Source: an uncultured Clostridia bacterium
GTDB lineage: Bacteria; Bacillota; Clostridia; Christensenellales; Borkfalkiaceae
NCBI GenBank assembly: GCA_964503655.1
Contig: CAZDAG010000007.1
Location: forward strand, 7,713-71,712
DNA: 64,000 nucleotides
Direction of reading: 5' to 3'
The position numbers and the translations under genes are program-made. Numbering within the stretch: the stretch's first letter is position 1; every line of letters starts with the position of its first letter. The notes beneath the pieces are model-generated. The model had not been told where the DNA came from, did no database searches, and saw only the letters and a program-made list of their open reading frames with translations. This document shows, one piece after another, positions 28,529 to 60,490 of the stretch.

Positions 28529-28592
28529 AAAATTTTCTCCTGATTTTGTTGATATTAAAACGTATGTTTGCATTTAAGGGTAAAAATATATG

Positions 28593-28733: not shown

Positions 28734-29541
28734 TTGTAATCACCTCCTTTTTTGTGCTTTATTTCGGGGCTATAATGGTTATATCTTTCAACCTAACAGG
28801 CTTCTTAGTAGGTTGAAAATTTTTTAATGTAATGCGGTTATAACGCTTAAACCTGAAACCTAATTTCCTGTTTGAAAAAATAATTCAAAAATTTTTTCCG
28901 TTGCGATATGGTTATAGCGGTTAAACAGGTCAGCAAATGAGCTGTTTTAATAAATTTTTCATTAGCAGTCTAACAGCCTAACTCGACACATAATGTCGTG
29001 TTTGATAAAATTCTTTTAACATTTAAAGTGGCAACCTACTTGCCACAATAAAAAACTTTTCATATCTTTTAGGACAACAATTTTTAAAAGTTCGTATTTT
29101 TGCAAAAAATAGTTTTGAAAAAACATCCTTACATATCTTTCAGTACAAAAATTTGCAAAAGTTAACCTTTTTGAGTGTGCAGAAAACCCACATTTGCAGA
29201 GCCAAAACCAAACAATTGCGTGCAAAGTTACTACAATACCCCACATTTGCGGACATAAATTATGTTTGCGTTCAAAGGGAAACTGCCGCGGAAAATAAAA
29301 AATAACCCTACGCAAAAAGCGTAAGGCTAAAATGAAAAAATGCCGCAAAGGTTACAGGGCGATTCGCCAAGCGGTTTAGCGGCGAACGCCCGTCCTTGCG
29401 GTATTCATTTCTTGCTTTTTATTAGGTTGTTTTATTTCGTGGCGGGTGCTTGAACGCGCGGCGTAGCCGCGCGCTCGTTTATTCAAGCACCCGCCACAGT
29501 GCCAAACAAAAATTAGGTGGTCTTTTTAGTGTGATAACCAT

Positions 29542-29570
29542 TTGACTTTATACACGATAGCGTGTATAAT
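29542..29570 (+). promoter_or_regulatory. consensus promoter of the methyltransferase/nuclease pair
   Basis: TTGACT, 17 nt, TATAAT (29542..29547 and 29565..29570), followed by AAGGAG and ATG at 29598. Confidence 0.65.
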
Positions 29571-29597
29571 GAGTTCAAACTATTTAAGGAGCATTTT

Positions 29598-31707: not shown

Positions 31708-31840
31708 ACAGGGTGTTCAATTTACGTTCAGTATGGGCAGCCAAAAAGCCTTGTTTTTCGTGATTTCCGGCAAGAAATTACAGAAAAAACGGGGCTTTTT
31801 TTATGCGTTTTGCGTGTAACTTGCGTGTAAACGCCGACGA

Positions 31841-42750: not shown

Positions 42751-42821
42751 TATCCTCCTTCGTATTTGTTCGTAAAATACTACCATGGTTTTCCGTAGAT
42801 TGCAAGTGCTTTAACATAAAT

Positions 42822-43811: not shown

Positions 43812-43858
43812 ATTTGTTTCCTCCTTGATATTGTTTTTTTAGTTAACTTTTTTTCAAA

Positions 43859-43878
43859 AAGTGTAGCTCACTACACTT
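43859..43878 (-). other. candidate oriT hairpin
   Basis: AAGTGTAG-CTCA-CTACACTT (8-bp stem) lies about 50 nt upstream of the relaxase start. It is followed by direct repeats AGTTCCGCTTCGC and AGTTCCGCTCGCC. Confidence 0.35.
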
Positions 43879-44444
43879 AGTTCCGCTTCGCTGCATAAGT
43901 TCCGCTCGCCCTGCGGGGCTGTTTTTGCCAATTAAGGCGGTCTGATTGTCATAAATTTACCTCCGAAATGTATTAATGTGGTCTAAAAAAGCACGCAAAA
44001 AAGCCGCTGATACTTTCAACGTAATCACCGACTTCTAACCGTATTTAGCAAATTGAATTGCTCTATGGTGGTTAGCCATTCTATTGAGTTATGTGAGTAA
44101 GGTTAGTTCAGAAACACTCCTTTTTTACAAAAAAAATTTATACGCTTATAAAAGCCTATCACGGCTCACGGTTTTCGCGTACAACAAAAACACCTCGCAT
44201 TCAAAACCGCAAGCTAAGGCACGAACGGACTCTTGCCGTTCAAAAAACTTTCTGCGTTTCGCGGACACTTTCACTCGTCCGCCGCAGATCTCTAACCCTA
44301 TTCAAAGGGTAACATACGAATTATATCGTACAAGATTATTATATCATAAATTTCTTATATGTCAAGAAAATATAAACAATTGTTCGTATATTTTTTAAAG
44401 ATATTAATTGCTTTATAATTAAAATGTAGAACTTCAATAACAAT

Positions 44445-44474
44445 CAACCGCCGACGGAAAACCGTCGGCGGTTG
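44445..44474 (-). terminator. GC-rich hairpin downstream of the Fic gene (end of the long minus-strand operon)
   Basis: CAACCGCCGACGG-AAAA-CCGTCGGCGGTTG has a 13-bp stem. The T-tract on the minus strand is weak. Confidence 0.5.
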
Positions 44475-44496
44475 GTGCTGTTTATCGTTTTTAATC

Positions 44497-45258
44497 TTAT
44501 ATTTCGTAGTAGTAGGAATAATCTATTCCTTTTATAAACATTTCGCGGTTGTTAATTTTGTATGTAAGCGCACCGCTGATAAGCGTAAGAATATCAGTAT
44601 AAACCACAGGACTTTTCTGCATTGCGGAGAGATACGCCCGCTTGTCTATCTCGCTCCAATCCACGCATTTGCGTAAATTGCTTTTTAATATCAAATCAAG
44701 CCAAATCCTCGAGCTCCTGCCGTTGCCTTCCATAAACGGGTGAGCTACTTTCATTTCCACATACTTCTTCACGATGTTCTCAATTGTATCTTCCGGCATC
44801 TTGTCAATGAGGGCAAGATTTTCTTTCAGGTACATTGACGGGGCATAGGCAAAGCCGCCTTTAGCAATATTGCAACCACGAATTTGTCCCGCAAAATCGT
44901 ACAGACCGCCGAAAATATATCCGTGAATTTGCTGTAAACCTTTCGTCGTTCCTACCTCGACTTCGTCTATCAAGCCGTTTTCAAAGAGTTCGTAAGCCTT
45001 CTACTTACTCTTTTCGTCTAGCGTGTTTCCGATTCCTTTTACCCACTGAGAAAAGTTCTTTTTATTCTTTGCCGGAATTAACGCAGTAATTAGCGTAACA
45101 CTGTTTTCGTCTACAACGTCAGTAGGGTAAGACTTACCGTCGTTTGCCTCCAATTTCAGTTGTTTGCAAATTGCAATCAACTGAGTATTTCGGCGTTTCA
45201 TCGTTGCCAAATAAACACGTGAATTACTGCTTTTCGTCAAGGCTTCCGCAATATGCAT
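44497..45258 (-). pseudogene. Fic (FIDO) domain gene interrupted by a single in-frame TAG
   Basis: ORFs 45001..45258 and 44497..44973 are in the same frame, separated only by TAG at 45003..45001 (...[24 protein letters not shown]...). The Fic motif [12 protein letters not shown] lies in the distal part. Confidence 0.65.
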
Positions 45259-45366
45259 TGCGCAAAACCATCATTTGGAAGTATCGTCATCCCAAACGGC
45301 CCTCACAGGAATATCTTCAAAAAATCTGATCGATGTTTTTATCATATCCACTTTATAATCTTATCT

Positions 45367-46509
45367 TTATTTTAACGCCATCAATAAAGCGTCAGCAACC
45401 GCTTCCACATCAGCATGACTTGTGTCTTGATTAAACGATATACGAATAGTACCCGTTTCAAAATCGCTAGGAACATTTATTGCTTTAATCACATGAGACA
45501 CTTGAGTATTAACAGAATCACATGCAGCCCCAGTAGAAATCATTATTCCTTTTAAATCAAGTCTATGCATGAGTACCTCGCCATCTCTTCCCTTGAAAGA
45601 TAAACTGATTACCCCCGGCAAATGATTGCCCTCTTTGTGATCGCCATTCCAAGTGAAATCATTACCGATGACTAGGCCTGCATCCTGCAATTTTGAAATA
45701 AAAAACCTTTCTTCTTCGTAAAGCTTTTGCACGGTTGCAATCTCATTTATACTACTTTTTAAAGCGACAGCCATTCCGATTATCGCGGCTACATTATGTG
45801 TCCCTGCTCTTTTTGAAGATTCTTGAGAGCCACCGCTCATAAAAGAAATTAGATGAGTACCACTTTTTACATACAAAAATCCTACACCCTTGGGGCCTCC
45901 AAATTTATGCGCCGACGCAGAAAGCATATCCACATTCATTTCCTGCACATCTATATTGATATGACCAACTGCTTGAACAGCATCTGTGTGAAAAATCGCT
46001 CCGTTTTTATGTGCTATGTAAGCAAGCTCCTTTATTTGTTGAATTGTGCCAATTTCATTATTGGCAAACATTATGCTTACAAGTCTTGTCCTCTCTGTGA
46101 TTATATTATTCAGTGTATTAGGTAAAACTTTTCCTTCTGTATTCACAGGCAAGTATGCAACAGGATATCCCAATCTTTCAATAAATTCACAACTCCTTAA
46201 AACCGCATGATGCTCTATCGCAGAAGTAATTATGGGGCTTTTATTTTCTAACGCAAAAGCCACCCCTTTGATAGCCCAATTATCACTTTCCGTACCACCT
46301 GAAGTAAAATAAATTTCCTCTGGCGTTGCATTTATACAAGTTGCAATTATCTCTCGTGCCTCTTTTAAGGCTTTTTTAGCACCACGAGAGAACGAGTATG
46401 ACTGAGAAGGATTTCCGTATTCTTCAATCAAATAAGGCTTCATTGCCTCTAAAGCATCAGCTCGTAATTTAGTTGTGGCGGCATTATCCGCATAAATAAT
46501 TGGCCTCAT
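45367..46509 (-). CDS. NifS/IscS/DndA-like cysteine desulfurase (class V aminotransferase)
   Basis: 380 aa with the PLP-lysine context SASAHKFGGPKGVGFLYV and the active-site Cys loop ISTGAACDS. It starts 5 nt after the preceding gene. Confidence 0.85.
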   Translation of the reverse strand: MRPIIYADNAATTKLRADALEAMKPYLIEEYGNPSQSYSFSRGAKKALKEAREIIATCINATPEEIYFTSGGTESDNWAIKGVAFALENKSPIITSAIEHHAVLRSCEFIERLGYPVAYLPVNTEGKVLPNTLNNIITERTRLVSIMFANNEIGTIQQIKELAYIAHKNGAIFHTDAVQAVGHINIDVQEMNVDMLSASAHKFGGPKGVGFLYVKSGTHLISFMSGGSQESSKRAGTHNVAAIIGMAVALKSSINEIATVQKLYEEERFFISKLQDAGLVIGNDFTWNGDHKEGNHLPGVISLSFKGRDGEVLMHRLDLKGIMISTGAACDSVNTQVSHVIKAINVPSDFETGTIRISFNQDTSHADVEAVADALLMALK

Positions 46510-46514
46510 ACATT

Positions 46515-46715
46515 TTATTTAAAGAGCGTACATCCCTCTTCTTTGAACTCCTCAATTTTAGCATACAATTCTTCTTCAGTTACTTCTAAATAATCAGCAA
46601 GACAAGCCATACAATAGAATTCTGTAATGTCTAAACCTAATAATTTTTTATTAATCCCTATAGTATCTTTATCTAAGTTAGGTTTGAAACAAGCAACACA
46701 ATTAGCTTTATTCAT
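46515..46715 (-). CDS. 66-aa Cys-rich protein of unknown function
   Basis: MNKANCVACFKP...EFYCMACLADY...EEGCTLFK has CxxC, CxxC and one further Cys. It overlaps the BrxL-like gene by 8 nt. Confidence 0.6.
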   Translation of the reverse strand: MNKANCVACFKPNLDKDTIGINKKLLGLDITEFYCMACLADYLEVTEEELYAKIEEFKEEGCTLFK

Positions 46716-48177
46716 TAATGTCCCTCAGCTTAAAATCTGGTATTTCCTTATTGCGATATTCTTTATCTAAAGCCCGTTGTTGACCACGTATAATAGACCG
46801 CATCGCTATAGCTGGTTTTAAACAATAATGTTTAAAATCATTGAATTGAACATCTTCAACTTTCCTAACATTGGGGAATAACAATTTAAGATACGCCGTA
46901 CATATTCTCTTTATTGCTTCAGAATCCCTTGTGTCTGCATTATCTGGCTCTAGTAGCAGTCTGTCAACTATAGTACGATATGACGTATCATCTCTCAACA
47001 AATGCATTATTGAACAGAAATATTCAGAATTTAATGCCCATCCTGACAGTTTCAGTCCATCATTCATTCTAGGAATATCCCATCCCTTTATAAAACCATG
47101 TATCCTATCAAGCAATGCCGTTTCTTGAAACAACGGAGGAAGTTCACTCAGCATATAACCATATTCATCCATATTATCTTGATCAATATTACCTAAGAAA
47201 ACTATACCGGCATCTGCTTCGCCTTCAAATCCATTTATATTAAAGGTGCCATATTCCATATATCCTTGAAGAATAGAACGCATTTCATTGTCATCATTAA
47301 ATTTTACTAATTTAACTTCGTCTATAGCAACAAAATCATTACCAGCTATAAACCCATAACGTCCTCTAGCCGTATCAAAAAACATTTTAGCTCTTGATAC
47401 CTTACCGCCATCAACTAATGTACCATATTTACTTACATGTCCAAATAAATATGATTTACCTGTTCCTTTGGGTGCAAGTTCTATTAAGTTCAATCGTTTC
47501 TCTATAAAAGGTAACAATCTAGTTAAAACAGCTAACTTTTCATGTTCGTCTTTGTAACCTGCTGCATTATAATCAACTGCGCCCAAAATAACATCTATCC
47601 ATTCATGAATGTTAAACTCAGCTCTAATGTCTTTATAGTATTCTAAATCAATTGCATAAGGACAAAAATTCTTAAAAGATAATAAACGTATCTTCCCTTT
47701 CTCTTTGCTTTTAATTTTATTGTCAGTTAATACAGCATCAAAATTGTCAGGGTACTTATATCCTAACTCTACAATACCCCATACATCACGACTATTAATT
47801 AATTCTGATTTAACTTGTTCCCAAACATGCGGTTCTATAATTGTTTCTCTGTTTGAAAGCCCAAAATCAGGAAGAGAAAAAGTTATTTCCTGTGTGCTAA
47901 CACTTATATCTACTGAAATTTTTGTGAGAAACTTAACCCTCTCGCCTTCAATGACAATTCTATTTTTAATACTCATCCACTCTTCTTTACGGGGAATTCG
48001 CTGTTTTATGAATTCATCCATTCCTTCATAATCAATATCCCCACTTTCATCTTGAAAAGTTTTAATTAAATAATCCCTTAAAAAGGAGGGTAGATTTAGT
48101 CCGGAAAAGAAACTTGTATTTTTTATATCCTTAAATACAACCATTTCATCAAAGCATTCACGCAATTTATCAGTCAT
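46708..48177 (-). CDS. brxL: BrxL-like AAA ATPase lacking a Lon-protease-like C-terminal domain
   Basis: 489 aa. The N-terminal region resembles BrxL (VVFKDIKN...LPSFLRDYLIKTF). Walker A is APKGTGKSYLF and Walker B is FVAIDEV. Its length leaves no room for a protease domain. Confidence 0.6.
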   Translation of the reverse strand: MTDKLRECFDEMVVFKDIKNTSFFSGLNLPSFLRDYLIKTFQDESGDIDYEGMDEFIKQRIPRKEEWMSIKNRIVIEGERVKFLTKISVDISVSTQEITFSLPDFGLSNRETIIEPHVWEQVKSELINSRDVWGIVELGYKYPDNFDAVLTDNKIKSKEKGKIRLLSFKNFCPYAIDLEYYKDIRAEFNIHEWIDVILGAVDYNAAGYKDEHEKLAVLTRLLPFIEKRLNLIELAPKGTGKSYLFGHVSKYGTLVDGGKVSRAKMFFDTARGRYGFIAGNDFVAIDEVKLVKFNDDNEMRSILQGYMEYGTFNINGFEGEADAGIVFLGNIDQDNMDEYGYMLSELPPLFQETALLDRIHGFIKGWDIPRMNDGLKLSGWALNSEYFCSIMHLLRDDTSYRTIVDRLLLEPDNADTRDSEAIKRICTAYLKLLFPNVRKVEDVQFNDFKHYCLKPAIAMRSIIRGQQRALDKEYRNKEIPDFKLRDINE

Positions 48178-48190
48178 TTGGCTTATCTCC

Positions 48191-50440
48191 TTAGAACAAA
48201 TTATTAATTTTGGCAGATTCTTTTTCTACAATAAACTCTTTTCCGCCACATACTAGTTCACCATTAGAATAGACATCAAATAAGTACTTCTTCGGCTTAT
48301 TAACATCGTCAAGATGAGCAGAAAAGTGCTGTCCATCTGAAGACACTGCATTATATTCTTTACCTTCAATGACCACTGTAACATTTTTTAATTTTGAAGA
48401 AGAATAAAATGATAAAACCGCTTTTGTTTTGAAACTAACTTTAATGGGTTTATCATCAACAATTATTTCTACTTCAATTGCATTAGGTACAATTTCTATT
48501 ATGGGCACAGTAACTTCTTCTATCGTAGCACCGCCATGCATTTCCACCTTGCCCTTACGCCCGCCTTTAAAGGAATTGTAATCGGCAAGTACATAAGTAT
48601 CACCTTCTTCTATTGCATTAGCTATTTTTCTTAGTTCAGGAACAACTTTACATACTCTACCACCATGTTCTCCAACTGACATCACATCTTCTTTGATCTC
48701 ATCTTTATTTAATATTGCTAAACGCGATGCCCCGTGATCAGAAATTACTACGGCCTTTTTTATTAATCCAGATTTAATTTTTGCTTTTATATTTCTTAAA
48801 CATTCATCGATAATTTCCAACTCTTCTATTAAATGAATTGGATAACTAACTTTTTCATAATCATAATTATTTAATCCTTCGTGTTTTAAGCTATCCAGTC
48901 TTTTCTCTTCATGAACTACAATTTTGTGTGTTTCATAAAATCTCTTAAATTCCACATTGAACAAAGTTAATGAAGGCAAATTACATTTGCAAACTTTAGT
49001 CTTAATATTAAGGCCGTATTCTTTACATTTCTTTTCAATATAGGATAAGTATTCTACACCTAACGCATCTATAAAGAAAACTTCTGCTCCTTCGTATTTT
49101 ATCCTCTCAACAAATTCTGTTCTATAAGGTAAACGACTATTAAATGACCTTTGAACGGCCTCCCTATCGACTTTTTCTTTGAACTCTGGGAATAAGATAT
49201 TAATAAGCTTCTGATATTTATATTCTCTGAAGTATTCATTAAGAAAATCATCCCCCAAATTATAGTCATTTAAATAATTGTATAAATCAGGATAAATATT
49301 AGATAAAATATTTAGAAGTTCCTTTTTTACATACTTATCTTTATACTTATCAATACATTCAATTATTTTCTGTTTTTCAACCAACGTATTATCTGTCAAA
49401 TAATAGAGTGCACTCTCATCTTTAGATAAAACCAATTTGCAATAATTATATACTGAATCCTCATCATTAATTTTCTGTAGTAATTGCTTCCAAACTTTAT
49501 ATTTCGACCAGTAATCAGGTTCCCTGTGATTAATTGATAAAATAGAATTATAAATTGATTTTATAAACTCATCAAAACTGTTGGACTTACAGATAGCATA
49601 ATCTATGCACCAATTATTAGTACTTGAAAGTTTAGCTGATAAAAATACCAGCCATTTTTCATAAGTACTCCAATCGGTCCACTTTTCAACTAAACTATCA
49701 ATCTCTTGTTCTTGTCCAATAAAATCAGCTATGGTTGTTTCTAAAGATACTCTGAACTTTTTACATAAAGTTTTCCAATCCTCCTGCGTCCCATATAAAC
49801 TCAAGAGATTTCTTGTTTTATCATCATATAATCCCAACAAATCAAAATAACTCTCACATTCCCCAATTGTAAAAAGGCTGTTAAAATAATCTTTTTTTAA
49901 ATGACTTGTTCTGATGAGAAATCTTTTCCCTTCATATTTTTCCGCGAGATCCAAGATCGCTCTAATCCCTTCACTACAATCTTCTTTATAAAACTCGACA
50001 TCTAAATTTAATAATTCAAATGTACAAGCAGGGGAAATATCCCCTTCCGCAACAACATAGTTGTCCCTATATCTAGGATCAGTTTCTTTATAATAAATCG
50101 AACTTTGATATGTTAAACAAAGGATTTTATGATTGAATGTCATGCTCAATAACCTATGCAACAAATCTTGTAAAGCCATTTCTCCAAATAACTTTAGATA
50201 TGTACCGAGCCCTATGACTACAAGATTACTACTTTGCTGACTTATAGTTTCTAAAAAGTCACTTATACTTATCAAATCATCGGATTTCGATAAATCAAAT
50301 AGTGAAATCTTTTTGAGCCCTAAATATAACAACTCAAGCTCTTTCAGATCCTTAACATTGCAGACATCTACAATTAACGGATGTTTGTCTCTATTCCCTA
50401 AATATTTATCAATCTTGTTTTTAACCTCGTCGAGTCTCAT
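48191..50440 (-). CDS. pglZ: PglZ domain (alkaline-phosphatase-fold) protein
   Basis: 749 aa with a C-terminal half containing FFIDALGVEYLSY and VVISDHGASRLA, as in PglZ domains. Confidence 0.7.
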   Translation of the reverse strand: MRLDEVKNKIDKYLGNRDKHPLIVDVCNVKDLKELELLYLGLKKISLFDLSKSDDLISISDFLETISQQSSNLVVIGLGTYLKLFGEMALQDLLHRLLSMTFNHKILCLTYQSSIYYKETDPRYRDNYVVAEGDISPACTFELLNLDVEFYKEDCSEGIRAILDLAEKYEGKRFLIRTSHLKKDYFNSLFTIGECESYFDLLGLYDDKTRNLLSLYGTQEDWKTLCKKFRVSLETTIADFIGQEQEIDSLVEKWTDWSTYEKWLVFLSAKLSSTNNWCIDYAICKSNSFDEFIKSIYNSILSINHREPDYWSKYKVWKQLLQKINDEDSVYNYCKLVLSKDESALYYLTDNTLVEKQKIIECIDKYKDKYVKKELLNILSNIYPDLYNYLNDYNLGDDFLNEYFREYKYQKLINILFPEFKEKVDREAVQRSFNSRLPYRTEFVERIKYEGAEVFFIDALGVEYLSYIEKKCKEYGLNIKTKVCKCNLPSLTLFNVEFKRFYETHKIVVHEEKRLDSLKHEGLNNYDYEKVSYPIHLIEELEIIDECLRNIKAKIKSGLIKKAVVISDHGASRLAILNKDEIKEDVMSVGEHGGRVCKVVPELRKIANAIEEGDTYVLADYNSFKGGRKGKVEMHGGATIEEVTVPIIEIVPNAIEVEIIVDDKPIKVSFKTKAVLSFYSSSKLKNVTVVIEGKEYNAVSSDGQHFSAHLDDVNKPKKYLFDVYSNGELVCGGKEFIVEKESAKINNLF

Positions 50441-50452
50441 CGTATTGCCCTC

Positions 50453-53400
50453 TTACTTCTTGGTCTTTATAATTTCAATTCCAACCGCCATATTTTCTTT
50501 GATAAGTTTCTTAATGTATTCTTTCAAATCTTGTGGGCTCATTGCATCAACGATTTCATCTGCTACCTTGCTTCCACCATTGTTATATTTGTTAAATGCC
50601 ATGTCTTTAAGCAATAATTCAACACCAGTTGAATTAAGCCAATCATAAGGCTCTTCAGAAAGACGATTTTTTAATTCAGTTTTAACCTGAGAAATATCCG
50701 TAAGTATAACAGCGTAAGACTTAAGGAATCTAGATTTAAATGCCTCTTCTCTATATCGCTCATCTCTTAAGTTTGAAACACATTTTGAAGTCTCTAAAAA
50801 TTTAATGGCATCATTAATTTTAACTTCTTCACCAACCTGTGAATTAATCAACGTACACGCTAAACGAGCTTGCATTTCCTCCGTTTCATCGAACATACAA
50901 GCAACAGGCATTAAATAAATTCTAGACCATTCTAATGGAGTTTCTGTTCCGGTCTTTTCTTTCCACAAAGCACTCAATTTATATTTGTTTAAACTTGACT
51001 TATACTCTTTAACTTTCTCATCAAGTAAACTAATAAATTCACTATTTTCTTTTGTAAACACGCCATAAAGTGATTTAGAAATTTCTATAATATCTTCATT
51101 AGTGAGTCCAGCAAAATAAAATGCGCCGATCTTTTTTAAAACCTCTACTTGGTTTTCATAAAAGTATTTGAAATCTTCAAGCTTATTCTTCAATAATTCA
51201 AGAAACGCTTGCTTTGAATTGTCATAAATATAACCATTCTTCTTAATTTGATATAAAATTTCAAGGAACTCAGATAAATCTCCAATATAATTTTTGGCAG
51301 ATAAGTAAGCAACACGAATATTCTCACATCTAATAGCCCACTCGCGTATTGTTTCGATAAAAGAACATGTCTTTGTAAGAACCTTATTACTTTCAAATGT
51401 TATTTCATATTCAATTATTGTTTCACTTATCTTAGAATCAACAGTGTCTTTATTCCATACCCAATTGGATGCATTGGCATCAAACTTATTTGATAGTGCT
51501 GAAATATAATTGCCCGAATCTCCAATTTGGTTTGCGAGATAAACTAGCTTACCATCTTCATAAAGTTTCAAATAAGCTTTCATACCTTTTACGCAATTTT
51601 CGGCATTCAATAAGTTCTTTAAATCTATTGGCAATTGTTCATTATCTATAAATAATTTACCAATCGCTAAAGCAATGTCCGTTTCGCTTATATTAACTTG
51701 TCCATTATTAGCTAAAGCGACGTAACTATCTATTGCATTTGAAATCACTTCGCTACTACAGCGCATATTTTCCCCATCAAGAATATACTTTATTGTCCAA
51801 ATCGGGAACTTATAAGAAATCATATTATTTCTTATACGATTTCTTGTATTCTCTATTGAGGAACATAACTTTTCATCCAACCCAAACGCAACTGCCGTAC
51901 CAGCATTAAATTTTCTTTGTTCATCAGACAAAGTTTCAATATACATTTCCTTGTACTTAGGATTGGGTGTCTGCACATTTTTAATAACACCTTCGATCAT
52001 AGTCGCAAGTTTTTCGGAAGTCATTGGCTCAGTATTAAGCTCATCACTCCAGTTATAAACTTCATTTGCATATTCTTTTAACACGAATCCTAATATAAAA
52101 GCAACAAGGTTACAAGGCATAAATCCATATGGAGCATCCTTAAGTGCTTCATAAATTCTCGTTATTGAAACTCTCTTATTTTTTGCAAAGGACTCATTGA
52201 TAACTTCATCAACTTTAATTTTAATTTTTGATATAATTAGATTAGGTGATTTCAACCAATATTCTTCAATTAACCACGCATCTTTTAATTGATTCTCCAA
52301 TTTAGTATTCTCATTAGGTGATCTATAAGTCTGCTTGCACTCCTGACATATACCACAAGCAGCACCTAATCTTAAATTGTTTTGAGCATACATAGTATCT
52401 AAGACAGTATAATGTGTCTCAAGAGAATACTCAAAATGCCGTCTGTTTATTTCCTTTAATACAGCAAAAAGCTCACCCAAAGTATTGCAACGACTACCAT
52501 TTAAATTCCCATAGTAAACAACATTGCACTGTGAGATGCGCAACTTCGCCTTCCACCGTTTCAAAGGTTCTTGCGCATTCATAACATATTGCCGTGCCTG
52601 ATTTCTATCTTTAGTGCTTTGATACTCTGCATTTGCCATACCATCAACATATTGCGCAAAAGCATCTAAACCTAAAGGATTTATTGAATAATCAATAAAA
52701 ATAATATTACTATTATTTTCGTCACTCGCATATTTGGTAAGTTCTTCATTTATTTTAGTTTCTTCAGACTCATCTTTCGCGTATAAAAATACAGCATATA
52801 ACCTTGTAGGATGCGAAATTGAATCATTTTTAATTGCGTTAGTTACTGTTTTTAAATTATCTAAACCGACATACTTTGCTAAATATCTTATATCAAGATA
52901 CTTAGGCAGGTCGAACTCGTCAGCCATTCCACTTTCTTCAATTAGCTTGGAGGTTAATGTCAGCTTAAATTTCTCTTTTAATTTATTTATTTCTTCATGA
53001 TTGGCTTCTGACACATAGGCAGAATATTTAAATTGATCCCCTCCCAATGTTCTTCTAAAAATTATTTTTTCTCTTTCCAGAGAAGTAGCATGGCTCAAAC
53101 AAGAGGCAAAGTATTCTCCTCCCTCCATAGCAAGTTTTAAATTTTTTTCATTTGGTATAAACAGCTCTACCTTATCGTTTACCTTTTCACTAATCGCCTG
53201 AAGTAGTAATATTGTCTTTAAAACTACTTTTTCTCCTCTATTCAAATTATACGATTCTGCCCTACCATAACTGTCCAGAATGGTCCTAACTTGAGGAGAT
53301 AATTGCTCCTTTCCTTTTTCGTAGAAAAAGTCCCAAAGCATATCTACAGTTAACAACGGATTATTATCATATGGCCCAACATTATTGATAAACCACTGAA

Positions 53401-54652
53401 ATCCTTTGACCTCATCTCCTCTATCATTTTTTATAAAATCAAACATGCTTCTTTGATTAGAATCAAACGCAGATGATATATGCTTTAATATTAAAGCCGC
53501 ATAAGGATGAATAGGAATAATACCCTTCAATTCTTTTTCCCCTATGCCTGCTCTCTTCATAACCGCATTTCTTGCCTCATGCGTTTCATCATAAAGAGTA
53601 CATGTTATATCTTCATTCCATTCCCGCATTAAAGCAGTATCTGAAGTATTTTTCTCCATGGCGTGCCCCATAAGAGTAAACGCCATATTCTCAGGAAGCT
53701 CTATTGTACAAAGAGGCTTTACAAATCTATCGAAAATTTTGTTCTTATCCTTATCGACCTCACCAAAAAATGCTTCGGATTTATGAGTAACAATAAGCAT
53801 ATAAAATGGATAATTTTCACTAATCTCTACAATTTCTTGAAAGCCTGTTAAGTTCTTTTTGTTATTATCGAAGAAATCAGAAAATTCATCCCATATAAAA
53901 ATTATTGCCTTAAAATTGTTTCTTTTAATTATGTCAATTATCCAATCCTTCAAATTACCCGTGGTCAATGAAAGCATTTTTATTTGCATTTCGTCAGCGA
54001 CATAAGTAATTTTATTTATTAACTCAAGGACTGCTTCTTCACTTTTATAATTCTTTAAATTATTAAGAACAATATCTGCTGTTTCCCCATTAAATTTCGC
54101 CCTATAGGGTCCAACTATTAAACTGTTAAAATATTGAGAATTATGAGGAATCGATAACCAATCTATAATTGCTTGTTTTAATCCAAGCTTACCCTGATCA
54201 TAGCAATTTTCTTTTAATGCCGCCAAAATGCTTTCTTGTATCGCAAAAGTAAGGTTATTATCATTTTTTATTGAAGAAGATCCATATCTATGTACCGTAA
54301 GAATTTTTTCCGGTTGGCTTTTAATCTGAATAAATGTATTGTACAAATCATTAGTTAAAGCATCATATTTATCGAAATACTCCTTTGTTTCCTCAGCATT
54401 GGCATCTATTAATTTTTTAAGAGTTAGAACCGCATGCGATTTACCCGTACCGTACGCCCCTTCAACCCAAATTGATAACTTTTGCTGACGAGTTAAAACG
54501 CTTATAGTTTGCTTTAAAAGTCGAACAAAAGATTCATGAGGATAATAGCTTTTCCAAACGTCCGGATCATTTTTAATAGTGTCAAGGTTAATTGCAGGTT
54601 TAAAGCTTGGATCAATCCTGAAATAATTTTTATATTTTATAGATTCAGCCAT
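50453..54652 (-). CDS. brxC: BrxC/PglY-like large P-loop ATPase
   Basis: 1399 aa with N-terminal Walker A VEGAYGTGKSHAV and Walker B AIIFIWDEFSDF. Its size and position match BrxC. Confidence 0.7.
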   Translation of the reverse strand: MAESIKYKNYFRIDPSFKPAINLDTIKNDPDVWKSYYPHESFVRLLKQTISVLTRQQKLSIWVEGAYGTGKSHAVLTLKKLIDANAEETKEYFDKYDALTNDLYNTFIQIKSQPEKILTVHRYGSSSIKNDNNLTFAIQESILAALKENCYDQGKLGLKQAIIDWLSIPHNSQYFNSLIVGPYRAKFNGETADIVLNNLKNYKSEEAVLELINKITYVADEMQIKMLSLTTGNLKDWIIDIIKRNNFKAIIFIWDEFSDFFDNNKKNLTGFQEIVEISENYPFYMLIVTHKSEAFFGEVDKDKNKIFDRFVKPLCTIELPENMAFTLMGHAMEKNTSDTALMREWNEDITCTLYDETHEARNAVMKRAGIGEKELKGIIPIHPYAALILKHISSAFDSNQRSMFDFIKNDRGDEVKGFQWFINNVGPYDNNPLLTVDMLWDFFYEKGKEQLSPQVRTILDSYGRAESYNLNRGEKVVLKTILLLQAISEKVNDKVELFIPNEKNLKLAMEGGEYFASCLSHATSLEREKIIFRRTLGGDQFKYSAYVSEANHEEINKLKEKFKLTLTSKLIEESGMADEFDLPKYLDIRYLAKYVGLDNLKTVTNAIKNDSISHPTRLYAVFLYAKDESEETKINEELTKYASDENNSNIIFIDYSINPLGLDAFAQYVDGMANAEYQSTKDRNQARQYVMNAQEPLKRWKAKLRISQCNVVYYGNLNGSRCNTLGELFAVLKEINRRHFEYSLETHYTVLDTMYAQNNLRLGAACGICQECKQTYRSPNENTKLENQLKDAWLIEEYWLKSPNLIISKIKIKVDEVINESFAKNKRVSITRIYEALKDAPYGFMPCNLVAFILGFVLKEYANEVYNWSDELNTEPMTSEKLATMIEGVIKNVQTPNPKYKEMYIETLSDEQRKFNAGTAVAFGLDEKLCSSIENTRNRIRNNMISYKFPIWTIKYILDGENMRCSSEVISNAIDSYVALANNGQVNISETDIALAIGKLFIDNEQLPIDLKNLLNAENCVKGMKAYLKLYEDGKLVYLANQIGDSGNYISALSNKFDANASNWVWNKDTVDSKISETIIEYEITFESNKVLTKTCSFIETIREWAIRCENIRVAYLSAKNYIGDLSEFLEILYQIKKNGYIYDNSKQAFLELLKNKLEDFKYFYENQVEVLKKIGAFYFAGLTNEDIIEISKSLYGVFTKENSEFISLLDEKVKEYKSSLNKYKLSALWKEKTGTETPLEWSRIYLMPVACMFDETEEMQARLACTLINSQVGEEVKINDAIKFLETSKCVSNLRDERYREEAFKSRFLKSYAVILTDISQVKTELKNRLSEEPYDWLNSTGVELLLKDMAFNKYNNGGSKVADEIVDAMSPQDLKEYIKKLIKENMAVGIEIIKTKK

Positions 54653-54670
54653 TTTTCTTCTCCTTTGTTG

Positions 54671-57028
54671 TTAAAATAATTTAAGCACATCAGCAGATGT
54701 TTTATCTTGTTTTAAGTTAATATTATCAAGATCAAGAGTAAACGCTACTGAGATAAACTCTGGATAATTAATTGCAAGTCCGTTTAAAACTTTTTCCATT
54801 ATATCTCTGTCTAGACCAAATATTTCTGAAGGGCTGATTCCATCACTCTCAATATTGTAATTTAATAACCTTGAAAGGGTAAACTGATAATAATTTTCAC
54901 AACTTTCTGCAAATTTGTATAATGAGTAAAGAATTACTAATGGATCTGGATCCACCCAATTATATCTTGTTATACTATATAATTTTCTTTTACCACTTTT
55001 CACTTCATAATCACAAACTCCCAACCCTATACCTTCGCTTAATGGCTTATTAGAAATAAATATGTTTTTATATGCACTAGCTACATGATCTTTTGTATTT
55101 TGAGTCAGATTCTCATCCAACATTCCAATAATATGATCTGTAGTTATTGGTTGGTTTAAAGAAATGTTTTTAATCCACCAATTAAATTCTGGTGTATAAG
55201 CTAGATTACTAAGCATTAATCCCCATCCAGTAATAGAATCTGCTCCCATTGCCGCGACCACTTCACCAAATGAAGTTATCGCTTTTCTTTCGGCAATGCC
55301 CGCATCTTTTAGAAAATTCTTTAAAACATCAATCTTTTTGCTACCCAGATTATTGTCATCCCAAAAATTATTTTTCTTGTCAAAATACTCTTTTATCCAT
55401 TCATATTCTATACCGAAATTAGTATATCTATCTATACTTCCCATTTTCCTTTCTCCTTTTGGTAATTTTAACGAATTAGCCATTAAGCATCCGTAATCTA
55501 TATCATAACATTTTTTACATCTAACACATCTATCATCAATATGTAATTTTCCGTCAGTAAATGATATATAACCGTTAGGACAATTTGCTTCACATACACG
55601 ACATGCGACGCAATATGTGGTCTTCCTTAATACAATTTTAAGATAAGCACCAAAATATATATCGTCTTTTGTATTTGATTTAAGATCAACTGAAAAAGTA
55701 GTTACTCCTTCATTGTCGCTAATATGAATACAATAAATTTTATTGCGGAATTCAACATTAGCCTGTCCATCAGAGATACTAACTTTCCCTAAAGTTTTGA
55801 TCCATTCTTTCCAATCCGTATTATGTTGTTTAATTGAAATTGTTAATATCCCATTATCTTTATTATCAGAATATATATCTCTAGCAATGTTTAACTCTCG
55901 TCCACTTCTTCTTGCTTTCCACCCACCTATTTGCATAAATTCATCAACGGCTTGAGTGGATGACAAATTTTTTGATGTTGTATCTAAGATAATTTTATTA
56001 AAAATAGCTGTAGATTTAGCTTTCCCATTGCTTTCATGATAACAAACATCTTTAATATAAGAATTTTTCTGCCCAGCCAAAGGACAAATTAAACATCCAG
56101 CTCGACTATTGCCCTTTTTATAGGCTTGATTCAATATTAAATTATTGGTGTAGATATATAAAAACAACTCTGCCGTATTCCAATCTAAGATAGGATGACA
56201 ACTATACTGTCCTTTTACTTTATCTCCATTACTTACTTCAGAATACTCACCCCGTGCGTCACTTTCATCTGCTCTCACACCAGTAAATGCCATTCCACGG
56301 AACTTATCGTTTTTTAAAACTTTTCGTAGAAGCAGTATTTGGGGCGTAGATTTATGTACGCTACAACACCATCTCATTCTTTGTGCTGGAGGGCCAAATA
56401 ACTTCCATGATTCTACAGGATCAAAATGCGATTTAGCTATTAAAAACTCTATGCCTTGATTTTTGCACTGTTGCGCCACCAAATCAACGGTCTCATATGT
56501 ATCAGAAAACTCCATCCCCGTGTCTCCAAAAAGCACTTTGAAAGAGTTATGCGGTAATGCTTTCTGCACAATGTCAAGAGCTACAATTGAGTCTTTCCCT
56601 CCACTAAAAGCAACATAAAATACATCTACTTTGTTTTTATATTCAACATAAGTATTGTAAAGTCGCTTTATAGTAAATTGACCCAAAGCATCTAACAAAT
56701 CCTTATTTTTCTCAACCATTAATGCAATATTAACAGGCTCAAGCTTCTCCCCTTGAGACACAGGGTTATCAAGTATAACCAGTTCTGGAGCCGTACACAT
56801 TGTACCGCCTTTTGTTCGAGCAACTAGCTTTCCTCGATAAAAATAATTATTCCCTTCTGCCCACATATATGGAAACTCATCATTCTTATCGTACATCCAA
56901 TATTTATTGAACCCTAAAATATCGAGTTCATGCGAATAAACAGGCCTGGGCTCTTTACTGATCCCTGTAAGAATATCACTTCCTAAAAGTATTCCACCTG
57001 TCTCTTCATCCCAATTATAAGAATACAT
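54671..57028 (-). CDS. brxP: BrxP-like PAPS-reductase/DndC-like PP-loop ATP pyrophosphatase with a ferredoxin-type Cys cluster region
   Basis: 785 aa with the PP-loop VAFSGGKDSIV, then RWCCSVHK, GVRADES and CLICP. Next come CVACRVCEANCP and CVRCKKCYDIDYGC (4Fe-4S-like), followed by a roughly 240-aa C-terminal domain. Confidence 0.7.
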   Translation of the reverse strand: MYSYNWDEETGGILLGSDILTGISKEPRPVYSHELDILGFNKYWMYDKNDEFPYMWAEGNNYFYRGKLVARTKGGTMCTAPELVILDNPVSQGEKLEPVNIALMVEKNKDLLDALGQFTIKRLYNTYVEYKNKVDVFYVAFSGGKDSIVALDIVQKALPHNSFKVLFGDTGMEFSDTYETVDLVAQQCKNQGIEFLIAKSHFDPVESWKLFGPPAQRMRWCCSVHKSTPQILLLRKVLKNDKFRGMAFTGVRADESDARGEYSEVSNGDKVKGQYSCHPILDWNTAELFLYIYTNNLILNQAYKKGNSRAGCLICPLAGQKNSYIKDVCYHESNGKAKSTAIFNKIILDTTSKNLSSTQAVDEFMQIGGWKARRSGRELNIARDIYSDNKDNGILTISIKQHNTDWKEWIKTLGKVSISDGQANVEFRNKIYCIHISDNEGVTTFSVDLKSNTKDDIYFGAYLKIVLRKTTYCVACRVCEANCPNGYISFTDGKLHIDDRCVRCKKCYDIDYGCLMANSLKLPKGERKMGSIDRYTNFGIEYEWIKEYFDKKNNFWDDNNLGSKKIDVLKNFLKDAGIAERKAITSFGEVVAAMGADSITGWGLMLSNLAYTPEFNWWIKNISLNQPITTDHIIGMLDENLTQNTKDHVASAYKNIFISNKPLSEGIGLGVCDYEVKSGKRKLYSITRYNWVDPDPLVILYSLYKFAESCENYYQFTLSRLLNYNIESDGISPSEIFGLDRDIMEKVLNGLAINYPEFISVAFTLDLDNINLKQDKTSADVLKLF

Positions 57029-57046
57029 ATAATTACTTCCCGATTA

Positions 57047-59608
57047 TTATCTTTTTGCCTTCGCAATTATTAATTCGATATCTTTCGCTCTCCGCACAGT
57101 AATGTACCTATGTTCTCTTAAAAAGTTAAAGGCTTCGTTTACTGTCATTATTTCACCATTGATTTTATTATCTTTTAAAACCTTTATTAATAAATCCTCC
57201 CACGTTTTTATGGATGATGCTTTTCGAACTATAGCTCCAGTTGGGAATGACTGGTTAAATGATTTATGAAGTAGAGCGAATTTTTTACTAAACGAATAGA
57301 CATAGCTTTCCAGCAAATATTCATTCCAGGGATAATCCATTGTGGGAAAATCCGTATAATAAATTACATTTTCAAAAGGCAAATAATCATCATTGAAGAA
57401 TCGTTCGAGAGCTTCATCAATTTTATCAGAATCAAATTGAATTTTATCCTGTCTTACATATTGCGTCTCATTAACTCTTATTGCATTATTAAAAACCACG
57501 TCAAAATAAACATTTGCATTTATTTTTGCTTTGAATGCGTTTAATTCATCAAATGAAAAGCTCTCTCTTCCCAAGCAAAACTTTTCATATAATTCCGATA
57601 CGTCTACTTTTTGTCCATCAAGACTAATTATATCTCCTCTAAAATCAAATTCATCTTCAAGCTGTAATCTTAAAAAGCCTCTAAACCCCAAATCCGTTAT
57701 ATCTGGATTTGTCTCGCACATCTCAGACAAATATTCGCAGATATACGCATATAATTCTGATCCGGATGATGCACCAGCTTCACCTATTCGCGCATATAGA
57801 AATTCTTTAATACTATCAATTTGTTCTTCCGTATAAACAAATATCTCTTTATAAAAATAAGACTTTCCTTTATAATTTACTATAAAGTCCCTATCTCTTA
57901 AAATCGCATTTATTTGTTCTTTTTCAATATTAGGTAATTTTGCATATATCTCATCGTATGTTAATGGCTTTCCCGCATTTAAAAATACATTAATAATCTC
58001 TTTCTTTAAATCCACTTGAACATTTCTATATAAAGATACATATTCATCCCCACAATAAAATCCCGAGTAATTAATAAATTTTAAATAGGATTTCAACATG
58101 CTCCAATTGTATATGTAACTTAATAGAAACTCTTTAAACTGTTCATATAAGGTTGAATAGTATATTACTTGTGTATCTTCATGTAACGTTCTTATTATAT
58201 ACGAAACGATTATATTTTTACTGTCATCCGCAAGGATATTGGATGCATAAATTACATTTTCATAATTAAATCCGATTTTATATAACAAATCCTCAAACTC
58301 TTTTGTCCCTAAATCAAGTGATTTCCCGAATGTTTCTTCATACTTACTATAAAAACGCTTCCTAGCCAATATATTGCCTAGCTTAAATCCATTAATAAAT
58401 TCTGCTTCAAGTATTTTACTGCACTCATAGCAAACATCATCGTATGATGCTTTGTCTTGTTTTGCAATTTCAACGGTTCCGTTTAGTTTCACATCTTCTG
58501 GATGCTCTTTAAAATAATTATTTGATTCATCCACTGCGATATAAAAATCAGATAATGAGCTGTCCTTAAAAGGCTTAACATATCTCTTATCCTCTAATTT
58601 AAGCTTTGAAAAATAAATTCTCCCTTGCTTATCTACATAAAATCTTAATCTCTCCCCATTAAGTTTAGCCCCTATAATTGTTGCTCGCACATCTAAAATA
58701 ATGGATGGACATGTCTTTTTTTGATATTCATACAAATCAATAAATTTATCTACTATATCAATCTCACCATCAAAAAAATGTGAAACCATCTCTTTTTCTT
58801 TATAACGATCCAATCCATTTGGAGAAGAAACTGAGTCGTCCTGTCGAGCACTTCCTTGCATTGCTGGAATAATGGCTACCGTTTCCTGCGATGCAGGAAT
58901 TGTATGAGTATCCCTTGTCTTTACAGCTTCTTCAAATACCGTTTTATCCTCTAAAAGAATATTGGAAGCAATATTTACTTTTAGAAAATCAGAATACAAT
59001 TTTCCAATGTTTTCAAAGTTTTTAAATAAATGTGGATGTGAAAACTTAAAAATTTTTTTCGCAGAAAGAGCCACCCGAATCCTATTAAATTCTTTGTAAT
59101 CAATTATCTTCCAAAATACCGTCTTTGATATTTTATGAGCAACCGCATAATCTGAAACGCGAGATAGGCAATCCACATATACACTTGGTGTATTTTTACA
59201 AGACTCCCGCGTAGCAAGCCACTCTATAAATTTTTGCTTAGTATCTTCCAGCACCATAGTATTTTCCAACTTACTAGCTAAACGGTAAGCCTCTTTTAAT
59301 ATTTTAACATACTCATCTCTATTAGATTTGTATATATCCACCATTTGTACAAACAGTGAGGATGGGCCTCTGGTTTCAAATTCTTCTTTTTCAAAAGCAG
59401 ACTTAATAAAACCATATTGCCACCGCATACCATTCATATTTCGATACACATCATCAATCCGCTCACCGGCTGATACCGCCATATTACGAAGTGATTCTGA
59501 TAACATAACAAGCTCATCATCCAGATCGCAGTCCTTTTCTTTAACATTAATATAGCACTCTATCAAAAGTGCCACCTCATATTTATTCCAAGTTTTCTGA
59601 TGTGCCAT
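57047..59608 (-). CDS. 853-aa orphan protein, second gene of the BREX-like operon
   Basis: A long uninterrupted ORF with no P-loop, helicase, methylase or nuclease motif seen. The N-terminus (TWNKYEVALLIECY) is vaguely SANT/Myb-like. Confidence 0.6.
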   Translation of the reverse strand: MAHQKTWNKYEVALLIECYINVKEKDCDLDDELVMLSESLRNMAVSAGERIDDVYRNMNGMRWQYGFIKSAFEKEEFETRGPSSLFVQMVDIYKSNRDEYVKILKEAYRLASKLENTMVLEDTKQKFIEWLATRESCKNTPSVYVDCLSRVSDYAVAHKISKTVFWKIIDYKEFNRIRVALSAKKIFKFSHPHLFKNFENIGKLYSDFLKVNIASNILLEDKTVFEEAVKTRDTHTIPASQETVAIIPAMQGSARQDDSVSSPNGLDRYKEKEMVSHFFDGEIDIVDKFIDLYEYQKKTCPSIILDVRATIIGAKLNGERLRFYVDKQGRIYFSKLKLEDKRYVKPFKDSSLSDFYIAVDESNNYFKEHPEDVKLNGTVEIAKQDKASYDDVCYECSKILEAEFINGFKLGNILARKRFYSKYEETFGKSLDLGTKEFEDLLYKIGFNYENVIYASNILADDSKNIIVSYIIRTLHEDTQVIYYSTLYEQFKEFLLSYIYNWSMLKSYLKFINYSGFYCGDEYVSLYRNVQVDLKKEIINVFLNAGKPLTYDEIYAKLPNIEKEQINAILRDRDFIVNYKGKSYFYKEIFVYTEEQIDSIKEFLYARIGEAGASSGSELYAYICEYLSEMCETNPDITDLGFRGFLRLQLEDEFDFRGDIISLDGQKVDVSELYEKFCLGRESFSFDELNAFKAKINANVYFDVVFNNAIRVNETQYVRQDKIQFDSDKIDEALERFFNDDYLPFENVIYYTDFPTMDYPWNEYLLESYVYSFSKKFALLHKSFNQSFPTGAIVRKASSIKTWEDLLIKVLKDNKINGEIMTVNEAFNFLREHRYITVRRAKDIELIIAKAKR

Positions 59609-59804
59609 GAGTAATTTCCATTATATCATCTATTTCGCACTGCAAAGCACTACAGATTTTTACAAGAGTATCTGTAGTAACACTCTTCCCACTATTGAGT
59701 TTGTTAAGAGTATAATTGCTTATGCCCGCCATTGCGATAAGATCCTTTTTCTTCAGATCTTTATCAATTAATAACTTCCATAGCTTCTTATAAGAAACGC
59801 GCAT
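59583..59804 (-). CDS. XRE family HTH regulator heading the BREX-like operon
   Basis: 73 aa with DLIAMAGISNYTLNKLNSGKSVTTDTL. Its 3' end overlaps the next gene by 26 nt. Confidence 0.75.
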   Translation of the reverse strand: MRVSYKKLWKLLIDKDLKKKDLIAMAGISNYTLNKLNSGKSVTTDTLVKICSALQCEIDDIMEITHGTSENLE

Positions 59805-59838
59805 CGAGCTTACCTCATACCTAAAAAATAGCTATGTT

Positions 59839-59867
59839 ATTATAGCATATATCGCTTGCAAAAACAA
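59839..59867 (-). promoter_or_regulatory. candidate promoter of the BREX-like operon
   Basis: Minus strand TTGTTT, 17 nt, TGCTATAAT (extended -10). The short palindrome GCTAT-N6-ATAGC overlaps the -10. Confidence 0.4.
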
Positions 59868-60332
59868 CAAAAAAGTGAGCATATTTGAACTTTTTCGTCC
59901 CCTTTCGACACCCACTACTATCTCTTAAACTTCATACAGAAATTGATTCCGAAATACACCCCCGAAAGAAAAACTCACCTACTCCGTTTTAAACAGAATT
60001 TAGCTCCGCCATTCATTTATAATTCACAATCCATGCCTCTTTTTTGGGTACACTCCCAATTTCCACAATGCCTTAGTTGCTGATTTTTGGGGTTGCTCCC
60101 AAATTGGCATTGAATGACGGACAAAAGCGGGTTGTACTTCTCTTTTGTCCGTCAGTCAAATTTTGTAAAGTTAAACTTGCAAAATTAAGGTAAAAAATGC
60201 CCCCAAACGACATAAAATCATTTGGGAGTAATATGGGAGTTAAAAATTGAAAGTCATCGAAATCAGCAGATATTGTGGTATTTTTTGTTTGCTAACCACT
60301 ATATATTGTGGTTGAAAAATTTGTTCCTAAGC

Positions 60333-60373
60333 CTCTGACTTCGTCATTCGTTAGCACAAATCCTGCTATCCCT
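60333..60373 (+). repeat. degenerate copy of the tRNA-Gln 3' part (outer att of island 2)
   Basis: CTCTGACTTCGTCATTCGTTAGCACAAATCCTGCTATCCCT matches roughly 34 of 41 positions of the tRNA 3' segment by eye. Confidence 0.65.
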
Positions 60374-60427
60374 AATCAACGCGATACAAAAGCGGTGCGG
60401 ACATTTGGTCCGCGCCGCCTTTTTTAA

Positions 60428-60477
60428 GTTTGATTAGCGGTTAGCAAGTTTACTGAAAACGCATTTAAGATACGCCG
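60428..60477 (-). repeat. conserved 3'-UTR element, copy C
   Basis: Transcript sense CGGCGTATCTTAAATGCGTTTTCAGTAAACTTGCTAACCGCTAATCAAAC, between the stop (60491) and a terminator hairpin (about 60388..60420). Confidence 0.6.
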
Positions 60478-60490
60478 CAGGCATTGCCTG

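Follow-up and report, generated by a model that had tools for sequence, protein, structure and literature searches.

Type 4 of the bacteriophage exclusion (BREX) systems is now an established fourth phosphorothioate (PT) system, with genes for a cysteine desulfurase and a small zinc-finger protein catalogued as frequent parts. Yuan et al. (bioRxiv, June 2024; Nat Commun, January 2026; PMC12914056) described BREX-4 genes in dndC and sspD neighbourhoods, detected PT dinucleotides in BREX-4 isolates, and reported unusually diverse PT motifs among BREX-4 strains. Specifically, deletion of brxC in Bacteroides salyersiae abolishes PT, and brxP, mcrA and brxC rebuild it in B. thetaiotaomicron, where the SufS of the recipient acts as the desulfurase and the PT dinucleotide proportions of the donor are reproduced; PT synthesis does not require brxZ, brxL, mcrA or the unknown gene that lies downstream of brxL (PMC12914056). 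A survey of 457 type-4 taxa (Nucleic Acids Research, 2026; PMC12839542) found a cysteine desulfurase in 255 of them (56%), named it a potential sixth core component, and noted that a small zinc-finger protein is frequent in type-4 loci. Rakesh et al. 2024 (PMC10853773) do not mention BREX. Here we examine an operon at positions 45367-59804 of a 64,000-nucleotide stretch of DNA from an uncultured Clostridia bacterium (contig CAZDAG010000007.1, positions 7,713 to 71,712 of the forward strand; hereafter the window). From its profile matches and gene order we consider it very likely that this locus encodes a complete, probably functional PT-type BREX type 4 system, lying beside relaxase and integrase genes.

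An original prediction, made from the window sequence alone, had proposed that self-marking in this BREX variant is based on sulfur instead of methylation, and had added that no type 4 BREX mechanism had been demonstrated. The latter statement is outdated, PT synthesis having been published, and by the same work the former is correct for the BREX-4 family (PMC12914056). A sulfur-based BREX, the linked desulfurase and the Cys-rich micro-protein were already published between 2024 and 2026. The remaining interest lies in a large, fast-evolving, predicted DNA-binding protein that is always encoded before brxP, and in an invariant five-Cys micro-protein, whose roles could explain how PT-based BREX chooses its sites and discriminates between foreign and self DNA.

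Eight open reading frames (ORFs) on the minus strand form one co-oriented block, each at exactly the coordinates first proposed for it. The intergenic distances from the XRE gene to the desulfurase gene are -26, 18, 18, 12, 13, -8 and 5 nt, which agrees with the earlier description of overlaps or gaps of 18 nt or less, and the GC fraction is 0.327 across 45367-59804 (about 30% had been estimated by eye), as compared with 0.412 on the downstream side (41506-45366) and 0.494 on the upstream side (60491-64000). As had been observed, PglX is absent: neither it nor any other methyltransferase was matched in any of the eight proteins by Pfam, NCBIfam or PADLOC profiles. A second, identical copy of the operon is present on an independent metagenome contig. 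The genes, with protein lengths in amino acids (aa), are as follows.

59583-59804, minus strand: XRE/Cro-C1-type helix-turn-helix (HTH) regulator, 73 aa, the first gene, its 3′ end overlapping the 853-aa gene by 26 nt (Pfam HTH_26, 1.4e-18)
57047-59608, minus strand: 853-aa multi-domain protein of predicted DNA-binding type (winged-helix model, linkage to brxP)
54671-57028, minus strand: BrxP, 785 aa (PADLOC BrxP, 1.5e-242)
50453-54652, minus strand: BrxC, 1399 aa, P-loop ATPase and SspC homolog (PADLOC BrxC-PglY, 2.1e-235)
48191-50440, minus strand: BREX-4-type PglZ, 749 aa (NCBIfam NF033445 BREX_PglZ_4)
46708-48177, minus strand: short BrxL, 489 aa (Pfam BrxL_N and BrxL_ATPase, TIGR02688)
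46515-46715, minus strand: 66-aa five-Cys protein, ZnF66 (CxxC...CxxC...GC[TS]LF)
45367-46509, minus strand: class-V (NifS/IscS/DndA-like) cysteine desulfurase, 380 aa (Pfam Aminotran_5, PADLOC DndA/SspA)

A promoter and terminator scan returned 73 promoter-like sites in the operon, with 74 expected from shuffled DNA; as AT-rich DNA of this kind yields as many sites when shuffled, the scan is uninformative.

The BREX type 4 core and its desulfurase

All of the genes that characterize type 4, as defined in PMC12914056 and PMC12839542, are present: BrxP replacing PglX, an ATPase of the BrxC/PglY type, a type-4 PglZ, and BrxL, encoded by adjacent and co-oriented genes. Profile searches support the assignments of BrxP, BrxC, PglZ, BrxL and the desulfurase far beyond chance, and the motifs quoted in the original prediction (SGGKDS, the ferredoxin-type Cys clusters, SAHK and GAACDS) were all found and are conserved. 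BrxP matches its PADLOC model over residues 1-784 and contains a PP-loop/PAPS-reductase domain at 139-317 (Pfam PAPS_reduct PF01507, 3.7e-28) with SGGKDS at 142-147, two ferredoxin-type Cys groups at 473-514, and a C-terminal region at 533-784; the matches to Fer4 are weak. In an alignment of five BrxP sequences, SGGKDS and eight Cys in two CxxCxxC...C groups are invariant. This domain layout matches the published one, in which an extra Cys-rich, ferredoxin-like region is noted and the DndC-specific Cys dyad is said to be missing (PMC12839542). The C-terminal region is called DUF4007 in both articles (PMC12914056, PMC12839542), and following them we take residues 533-784 as the putative DUF4007/SspB-like part; this region matches a short PADLOC "BrxP" model (2.4e-13), and Pfam DUF4007 itself has no match there at E <= 0.01.

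The match of BrxC to PADLOC BrxC-PglY spans residues 4-1397 of 1399, with no match in Pfam or NCBIfam. For PglZ, the generic family PF08665 had been proposed as a check; this profile gives no match, but the identity of the protein stands by NCBIfam BREX_PglZ_4 (2.9e-111, 373.3 bits, cutoff 140), PADLOC PglZ (1.5e-79) and Pfam DUF7864, DUF7863 and DUF7862. BrxL is the short form without a Lon-protease domain, and is recognized by Pfam BrxL_ATPase (6.5e-104) and BrxL_N (1.2e-29), by TIGR02688 (381.8 bits, cutoff 329.3) and by PADLOC BrxL (9.4e-202 to a 482-position model). The desulfurase is matched over its full length by Pfam Aminotran_5 (3.6e-80), and by PADLOC DndA (2e-124) and SspA (8.2e-123). 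It has the class-V pyridoxal phosphate (PLP) fold signature with both the PLP-binding Lys and the catalytic Cys loop, namely K202 in SAHK (199-202) and C330 in GAACDS, each at least 97% conserved across 68 orthologs. Its scores against the NCBIfam models for NifS (TIGR03402, 427.8 bits, cutoff 530.75) and DndA (TIGR03235, 313.4 bits, cutoff 480) lie below the cutoffs, such that it does not qualify as a DndA equivalog; together they point to a distinct subfamily of its own that is linked to BREX-4.

It is informative to compare this arrangement with the systems already described. The B. salyersiae BREX-4 operon (brxPCZL) shares the four core genes and the lack of PglX, and it too is proposed to depend on a cysteine desulfurase. 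However, its brxP and brxC are separated by mcrA, its brxL is followed by an unknown gene, and it uses the housekeeping SufS, whereas in the window a dedicated desulfurase and the five-Cys protein follow brxL, and the XRE and 853-aa proteins precede brxP. Likewise, in SspABCD of the Vibrio cyclitrophicus type, SspA is the counterpart of the desulfurase, SspD of the BrxP PAPS domain, SspC of BrxC and, according to the literature, SspB/DUF4007 of the BrxP tail; indeed, BrxP has been described as a fusion of SspD with SspB, and BrxC as homologous to SspC (PMC12914056). The differences from SspABCD are this fusion, the presence of PglZ and BrxL as restriction partners instead of SspE or SspFGH, and matches to the SspC and SspD models that are far weaker than those to the BrxC and BrxP models (BrxC to SspC models, down to 2.8e-21; BrxP to SspD, 3.9e-13). 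With DndABCDE the locus shares the pairing of a DndA-like class-V desulfurase with an iron-sulfur (Fe-S) protein of the PAPS-reductase family (DndC-like; BrxP matches PADLOC DndC at 1e-4), but none of the eight proteins matches PADLOC DndD or DndE, and the desulfurase, as noted, is below the DndA cutoff.

The relatives of the operon were surveyed with the BrxP alignment against one genome per species of the GTDB, which yielded 307 relatives. The best 80 of these 307 loci (47-71% BrxP identity) were taken with 10-kb flanks and the window proteins located in them by tblastn; the 68 of the 80 that have at least 9.6 kb downstream of brxP serve as the denominator for downstream genes. BrxC, PglZ and BrxL occur in 67/68 loci, the 66-aa protein follows brxL in 67/68, and the desulfurase, for whose linkage to BrxP a survey of neighbourhoods had been suggested, is co-conserved in 64/68; gene order and strand are those of the window in all loci carrying these genes. 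Given the counts for the desulfurase and the 66-aa protein, the layout of the operon, which the original prediction had described as extended, is the rule and not an unusual extension, and it is the standard one of a widespread clade, largely of gut and rumen anaerobes. The best 80 loci come mostly from Clostridia, Lachnospiraceae, Oscillospiraceae and similar gut or rumen metagenome-assembled genomes (MAGs), with some from Bacteroidales, Selenomonadaceae and Spirochaetes, and the closest BrxP relatives, at most 71% identical, are found in MAGs labelled Anaeroplasma or Clostridia. To this clade, known by sequence only, the window adds a clean, intact example in a low-GC cargo block.

The small regulator is less constant: an HTH_26 gene of 66-73 aa occupies the same position in loci L001-L006 and L094 (locus numbers are those of the survey), and a small XRE gene was found upstream by tblastn in only 19/80. 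In the two operons closest to that of the window, L001 (2118-2798) and L002 (1779-2450), a gene lying just ahead of the XRE gene codes for a protein with an SRA domain, a fold that reads modified bases. This protein, whose gene is absent from the window, may be an accessory module for type IV-like restriction.

The following mechanism is proposed. Using PLP on K202, the desulfurase would take sulfur from L-cysteine to form a persulfide on C330, and would hand it to BrxP, whose Fe-S clusters it probably also builds. BrxP, effectively an SspD-SspB fusion in which a PP-loop ATP pyrophosphatase is joined to a ferredoxin-like 2x[4Fe-4S] region and a putative DNA-binding tail, would then act with the BrxC ATPase to place phosphorothioates at short motifs. 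The exclusion arm against incoming DNA without the PT mark would consist of PglZ and BrxL, and the XRE protein would be the regulator of the operon. We have high confidence that the PT mechanism and the function of the desulfurase apply here, by homology with the published systems.

Nonetheless, several considerations weigh against this proposal. The validated BREX-4 systems are from Bacteroidota, with mcrA between brxP and brxC and with no dedicated desulfurase; with these differences in host and layout, the PT mechanism is transferred to the clade of the window by homology. The sub-cutoff scores of the desulfurase for DndA and NifS count in the same direction, and loci that keep the five-Cys protein without a desulfurase (see below) weaken a strict partnership of the two. 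In addition, the parts of the literature covered here do not establish an anti-phage activity of type 4 BREX or the part of PglZ and BrxL in it, and the roles proposed below for the 66-aa and 853-aa proteins are ones that we infer.

The large protein encoded upstream of brxP

The 853-aa protein belongs to no Pfam, NCBIfam or PADLOC family, and had been called an orphan. This does not hold: a word-indexed search gave 39 homologs, and an exhaustive profile search gave 3,475 representative clusters at E <= 1e-3 (1,518 at E <= 1e-30), a family of about 3,500 clusters with strict linkage to brxP. All seven members sampled, at 24-63% identity, are encoded immediately upstream of a PAPS-reductase gene and then BrxC, with PglZ and BrxL following wherever the contig reaches that far, and in the reference loci a homolog of the C-terminal module ends just before brxP in 80/80 (tblastn). 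A large protein upstream of brxP is not among the type-4 components listed in the main text and supplement indexes of the survey (PMC12839542), and the 853-aa protein was not found described in the portions of text and the supplement indexes covered here for PMC12914056 and PMC12839542, a scope that leaves aside their neighbourhood figures.

Three regions can be distinguished in the protein. The N-terminal module (approximately residues 1-215) is conserved and helical, with a weak integrase-SAM-like signal. The middle (from approximately residue 216 to residue 387-400) is variable, and is replaced or expanded in relatives; in longer family members it contains Phage_int_SAM_5 and SAM_1 domains above the Pfam cutoff. 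The C-terminal module (from approximately residue 390-400 to 853) consists of about five winged-helix-like units and a conserved terminal region, and aligns without gaps in 61 proteins. Within the terminal motif FP..W.E......S, residues F754, P755, W761, E767 and S774 are invariant. Among the 150 best-scoring members, whose lengths range from 477 to 1,828 aa, the conserved module is always C-terminal.

An AlphaFold2 model built from 38 sequences has a predicted local distance difference test (pLDDT) score of about 90 in the N and C modules and below 50 in the middle, and the best Foldseek matches to it in the PDB are tandem winged-helix arrays (UFL1/DDRGK1, SelB WH1-4, Egalitarian, Dcc1, Rpc5 and AlkX). 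Foldseek against the BFVD gave nothing below 1e-3, profile searching of PDB sequences yielded nothing beyond a chance match (E 0.27), and the C-terminal 199 aa modelled alone (pLDDT 89, predicted template modelling score 0.84) had no structural neighbour below E 0.1 and no nuclease-like fold. A catalytic domain, either a nuclease or another enzyme, was considered and dropped, the profiles being empty and the structural matches winged-helix only. Kinship to the DUF4007/BrxA-like tail of BrxP was likewise rejected, with an hhalign probability of 0.2% against the BrxP alignment; there is no PADLOC match to BrxA or BrxB, and the likeness goes no further than the generic winged-helix fold. The protein is thus predicted, from these models, to be a non-enzymatic array of winged-helix and SAM-like DNA-binding domains.

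No other component of the operon evolves as fast as the 853-aa protein. Median identities to the window over the 80 loci are 68% for ZnF66, 63% for BrxL, 58% for the desulfurase, 51% for BrxP, 46% for BrxC and 35% for PglZ, and 30% and 28% for the C and N modules of the 853-aa protein. Furthermore, the two modules differ in their closest relatives: the family member P0008 shares 59% identity with the window protein over the N module but 24% over the C module, and for P0002, encoded in the closest operon (L001), the corresponding values are 46% and 76%. From this pattern the history of the N module appears to be separate, which suggests exchange of the N-terminal module between lineages.

These properties invite a proposal that we make only tentatively, with the chances somewhat against it: the 853-aa family would be a seventh component, obligatory but so far unrecognised, of those BREX-4 systems that contain a desulfurase, docking through its C module, with exchangeable N-terminal and middle modules that choose the DNA to be modified or excluded. 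With lower confidence than for the core, the C-terminal winged-helix array may dock on the BREX core, and the exchangeable modules may contact DNA, either in the sensing of foreign DNA or in the choice of sites. If true, the protein would be a diversifying "specificity/sensor cassette" of PT-based BREX, with a logic like the shuffling of target-recognition domains in HsdS.

It is also worth considering whether the protein is instead a second transcriptional regulator or autorepressor, in the manner of a large BrxR-like factor, and not a subunit of the machinery. It has only HTH, winged-helix and SAM-like modules and no enzyme fold, its gene follows that of the XRE protein with a 26-nt overlap, and BREX loci often carry regulators, for example the WYL regulators of L088-L091 and L094. 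Yet a protein of 480-1,830 aa with at least five winged-helix units is, in our judgement, larger than would be expected of a simple repressor. The family is present in 80/80 loci while a small XRE is detectable in a minority, loci with the family have separate XRE or WYL regulators as well, and very fast divergence with apparent N-module exchange is more typical of a host-phage interface. We therefore regard a purely regulatory role as unlikely.

A further explanation, in line with the candidate specificity factor of the original prediction, is that the protein is the sequence-specificity subunit of PT modification itself, with exchangeable modules that set the motif. Variable and seemingly exchangeable DNA-binding modules before a conserved, docking-type C module would suit such a role, as would the strict position of the gene immediately before brxP and the diversity of PT motifs among BREX-4 strains (PMC12914056). 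However, the donor proportions of PT dinucleotides were obtained in B. thetaiotaomicron with brxP, mcrA and brxC alone, albeit in a differently organised system (PMC12914056), and BrxP already has a putative DNA-binding tail of its own, which leaves this explanation improbable in our view.

Sulfur supply and the five-Cys protein

The desulfurase, alone or together with the 66-aa protein, might serve only to mature the Fe-S clusters of BrxP, with no sulfur passing from it to DNA; for the desulfurase, this is the duller alternative raised in the original prediction. It is favoured by the eight invariant ferredoxin-type Cys of BrxP, along with the weak Fer4 matches. A 2007 paper by You and colleagues, by its title, ascribes to DndA the capacity to assemble DndC as an Fe-S protein. 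Moreover, BREX-4 PT synthesis proceeds with a housekeeping SufS (PMC12914056) and 44% of type-4 taxa are without a dedicated desulfurase (PMC12839542), which together indicate that the dedicated enzyme is replaceable. Nonetheless, in Dnd and Ssp the sulfur for modification is described as coming from this same desulfurase (PMC12914056, PMC12839542), the profile matches of the window enzyme are to DndA (2e-124) and SspA (8e-123), and the two roles are compatible, both proceeding through the C330 persulfide. A role confined to Fe-S maturation is very unlikely, and the preferred reading remains that of a desulfurase supplying the sulfur for PT.

Between brxL, which it overlaps by 8 nt, and the desulfurase gene, 5 nt beyond its end, lies the gene for the 66-aa protein, which is the "small zinc-finger protein" of the published survey (PMC12839542). 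Its residues C6, C9, C35, C38 and C62, the last in a GC[TS]LF tail, are 100% conserved in 71 orthologs and also in a second alignment, and several Lys are likewise invariant in the 71. More than 1,100 homologs were found. The most widespread ortholog, found in over 4,000 contig blocks of which one is on CP020991.1, belongs to the same operon, there with a WYL regulator, a relaxase and an integrase behind it. Several homologs bear the Joint Genome Institute label "uncharacterized protein YlaI", and one that is 76% identical has a precomputed match to PF09963 (DUF2197), a family that the window protein itself does not match at E <= 0.01; a weak Pfam match to a NirdL-like HTH was obtained (E 0.0067).

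The five invariant Cys would fit a zinc site with one free Cys, or equally a purely structural or regulatory zinc finger. With lower confidence, we suggest that the protein is a zinc-ribbon partner of BrxL or of the desulfurase, working either as a regulator or as a sulfur relay through its fifth Cys, C62, the last being a possible role. Three loci keep the protein with no desulfurase after it (L062, 20294-22289; L014, 20346-21834; L085, at approximately 14045), from which it may be tied to the core, perhaps to BrxL, as much as to the desulfurase. In L062, the place of the desulfurase is taken by a 173-aa ORF that resembles the N-terminal module of the 853-aa protein, together with a Macro-domain protein.

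The mobile-element neighbourhood

Directly downstream of the BREX operon, and outside it, lie three genes identified by Pfam.

44497-44973, minus strand: Fic/DOC gene
42822-43790, minus strand: Mob_Pre relaxase
41506-42786, minus strand: tyrosine integrase

A relaxase and an integrase likewise flank the most widespread related BREX-4 operon (L088, L089 and L091), and the genes downstream of the window operon suggest that it is the cargo of an integrative mobilisable element. A search for direct repeats of the att type bounding the island gave only short repeats at chance level, and its boundaries are therefore set by the GC shift alone. On the upstream side, a 686-nt non-coding spacer (59805-60490) separates the XRE gene from the next gene; it contains strong hairpins at approximately 60118-60157 and 60392-60418, and the GC shift at the island edge falls inside it.

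Some relatives of the operon are decayed. In L089 (2076-6271) and L091 (1-6270 and 8565-10011), BrxC is split into 499 and 890 aa, BrxP is in four pieces and BrxL in two, and in L004 (14843-18816) BrxC is truncated at 1,079 aa with a Phage_integrase gene immediately after it. That the window operon is itself cargo acquired horizontally, now silent or in decay and without function in its host, might be argued from its GC of 0.327 against a host background of about 0.49, the integrases and relaxases around it and such split or truncated copies elsewhere, but is highly improbable, as all eight ORFs are intact and full-length against their profiles, the overlaps and short gaps are preserved and the catalytic residues are intact.

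More broadly, the region from 25 to 45 kb has a patchwork character, with recombinases, a Rep gene and a Dcm methylase. Within it, 25616-32953, with a GC fraction of 0.36-0.40, looks like a separate integrated element carrying a restriction-modification system.

25616-25690: tRNA-Gln, at the start of this element-like block
25933-27429: serine recombinase
27626-28573: Rep protein
29562-30692: Dcm-type C5 cytosine methylase
30685-31707: unassigned 340-aa protein beside the methylase, possibly its restriction partner
31841-32953: tyrosine integrase

Elsewhere in the window there are two very large ORFs, one of 1,141 aa at 60491-63916, which has no Pfam family, and one of 2,020 aa at 7324-13386.

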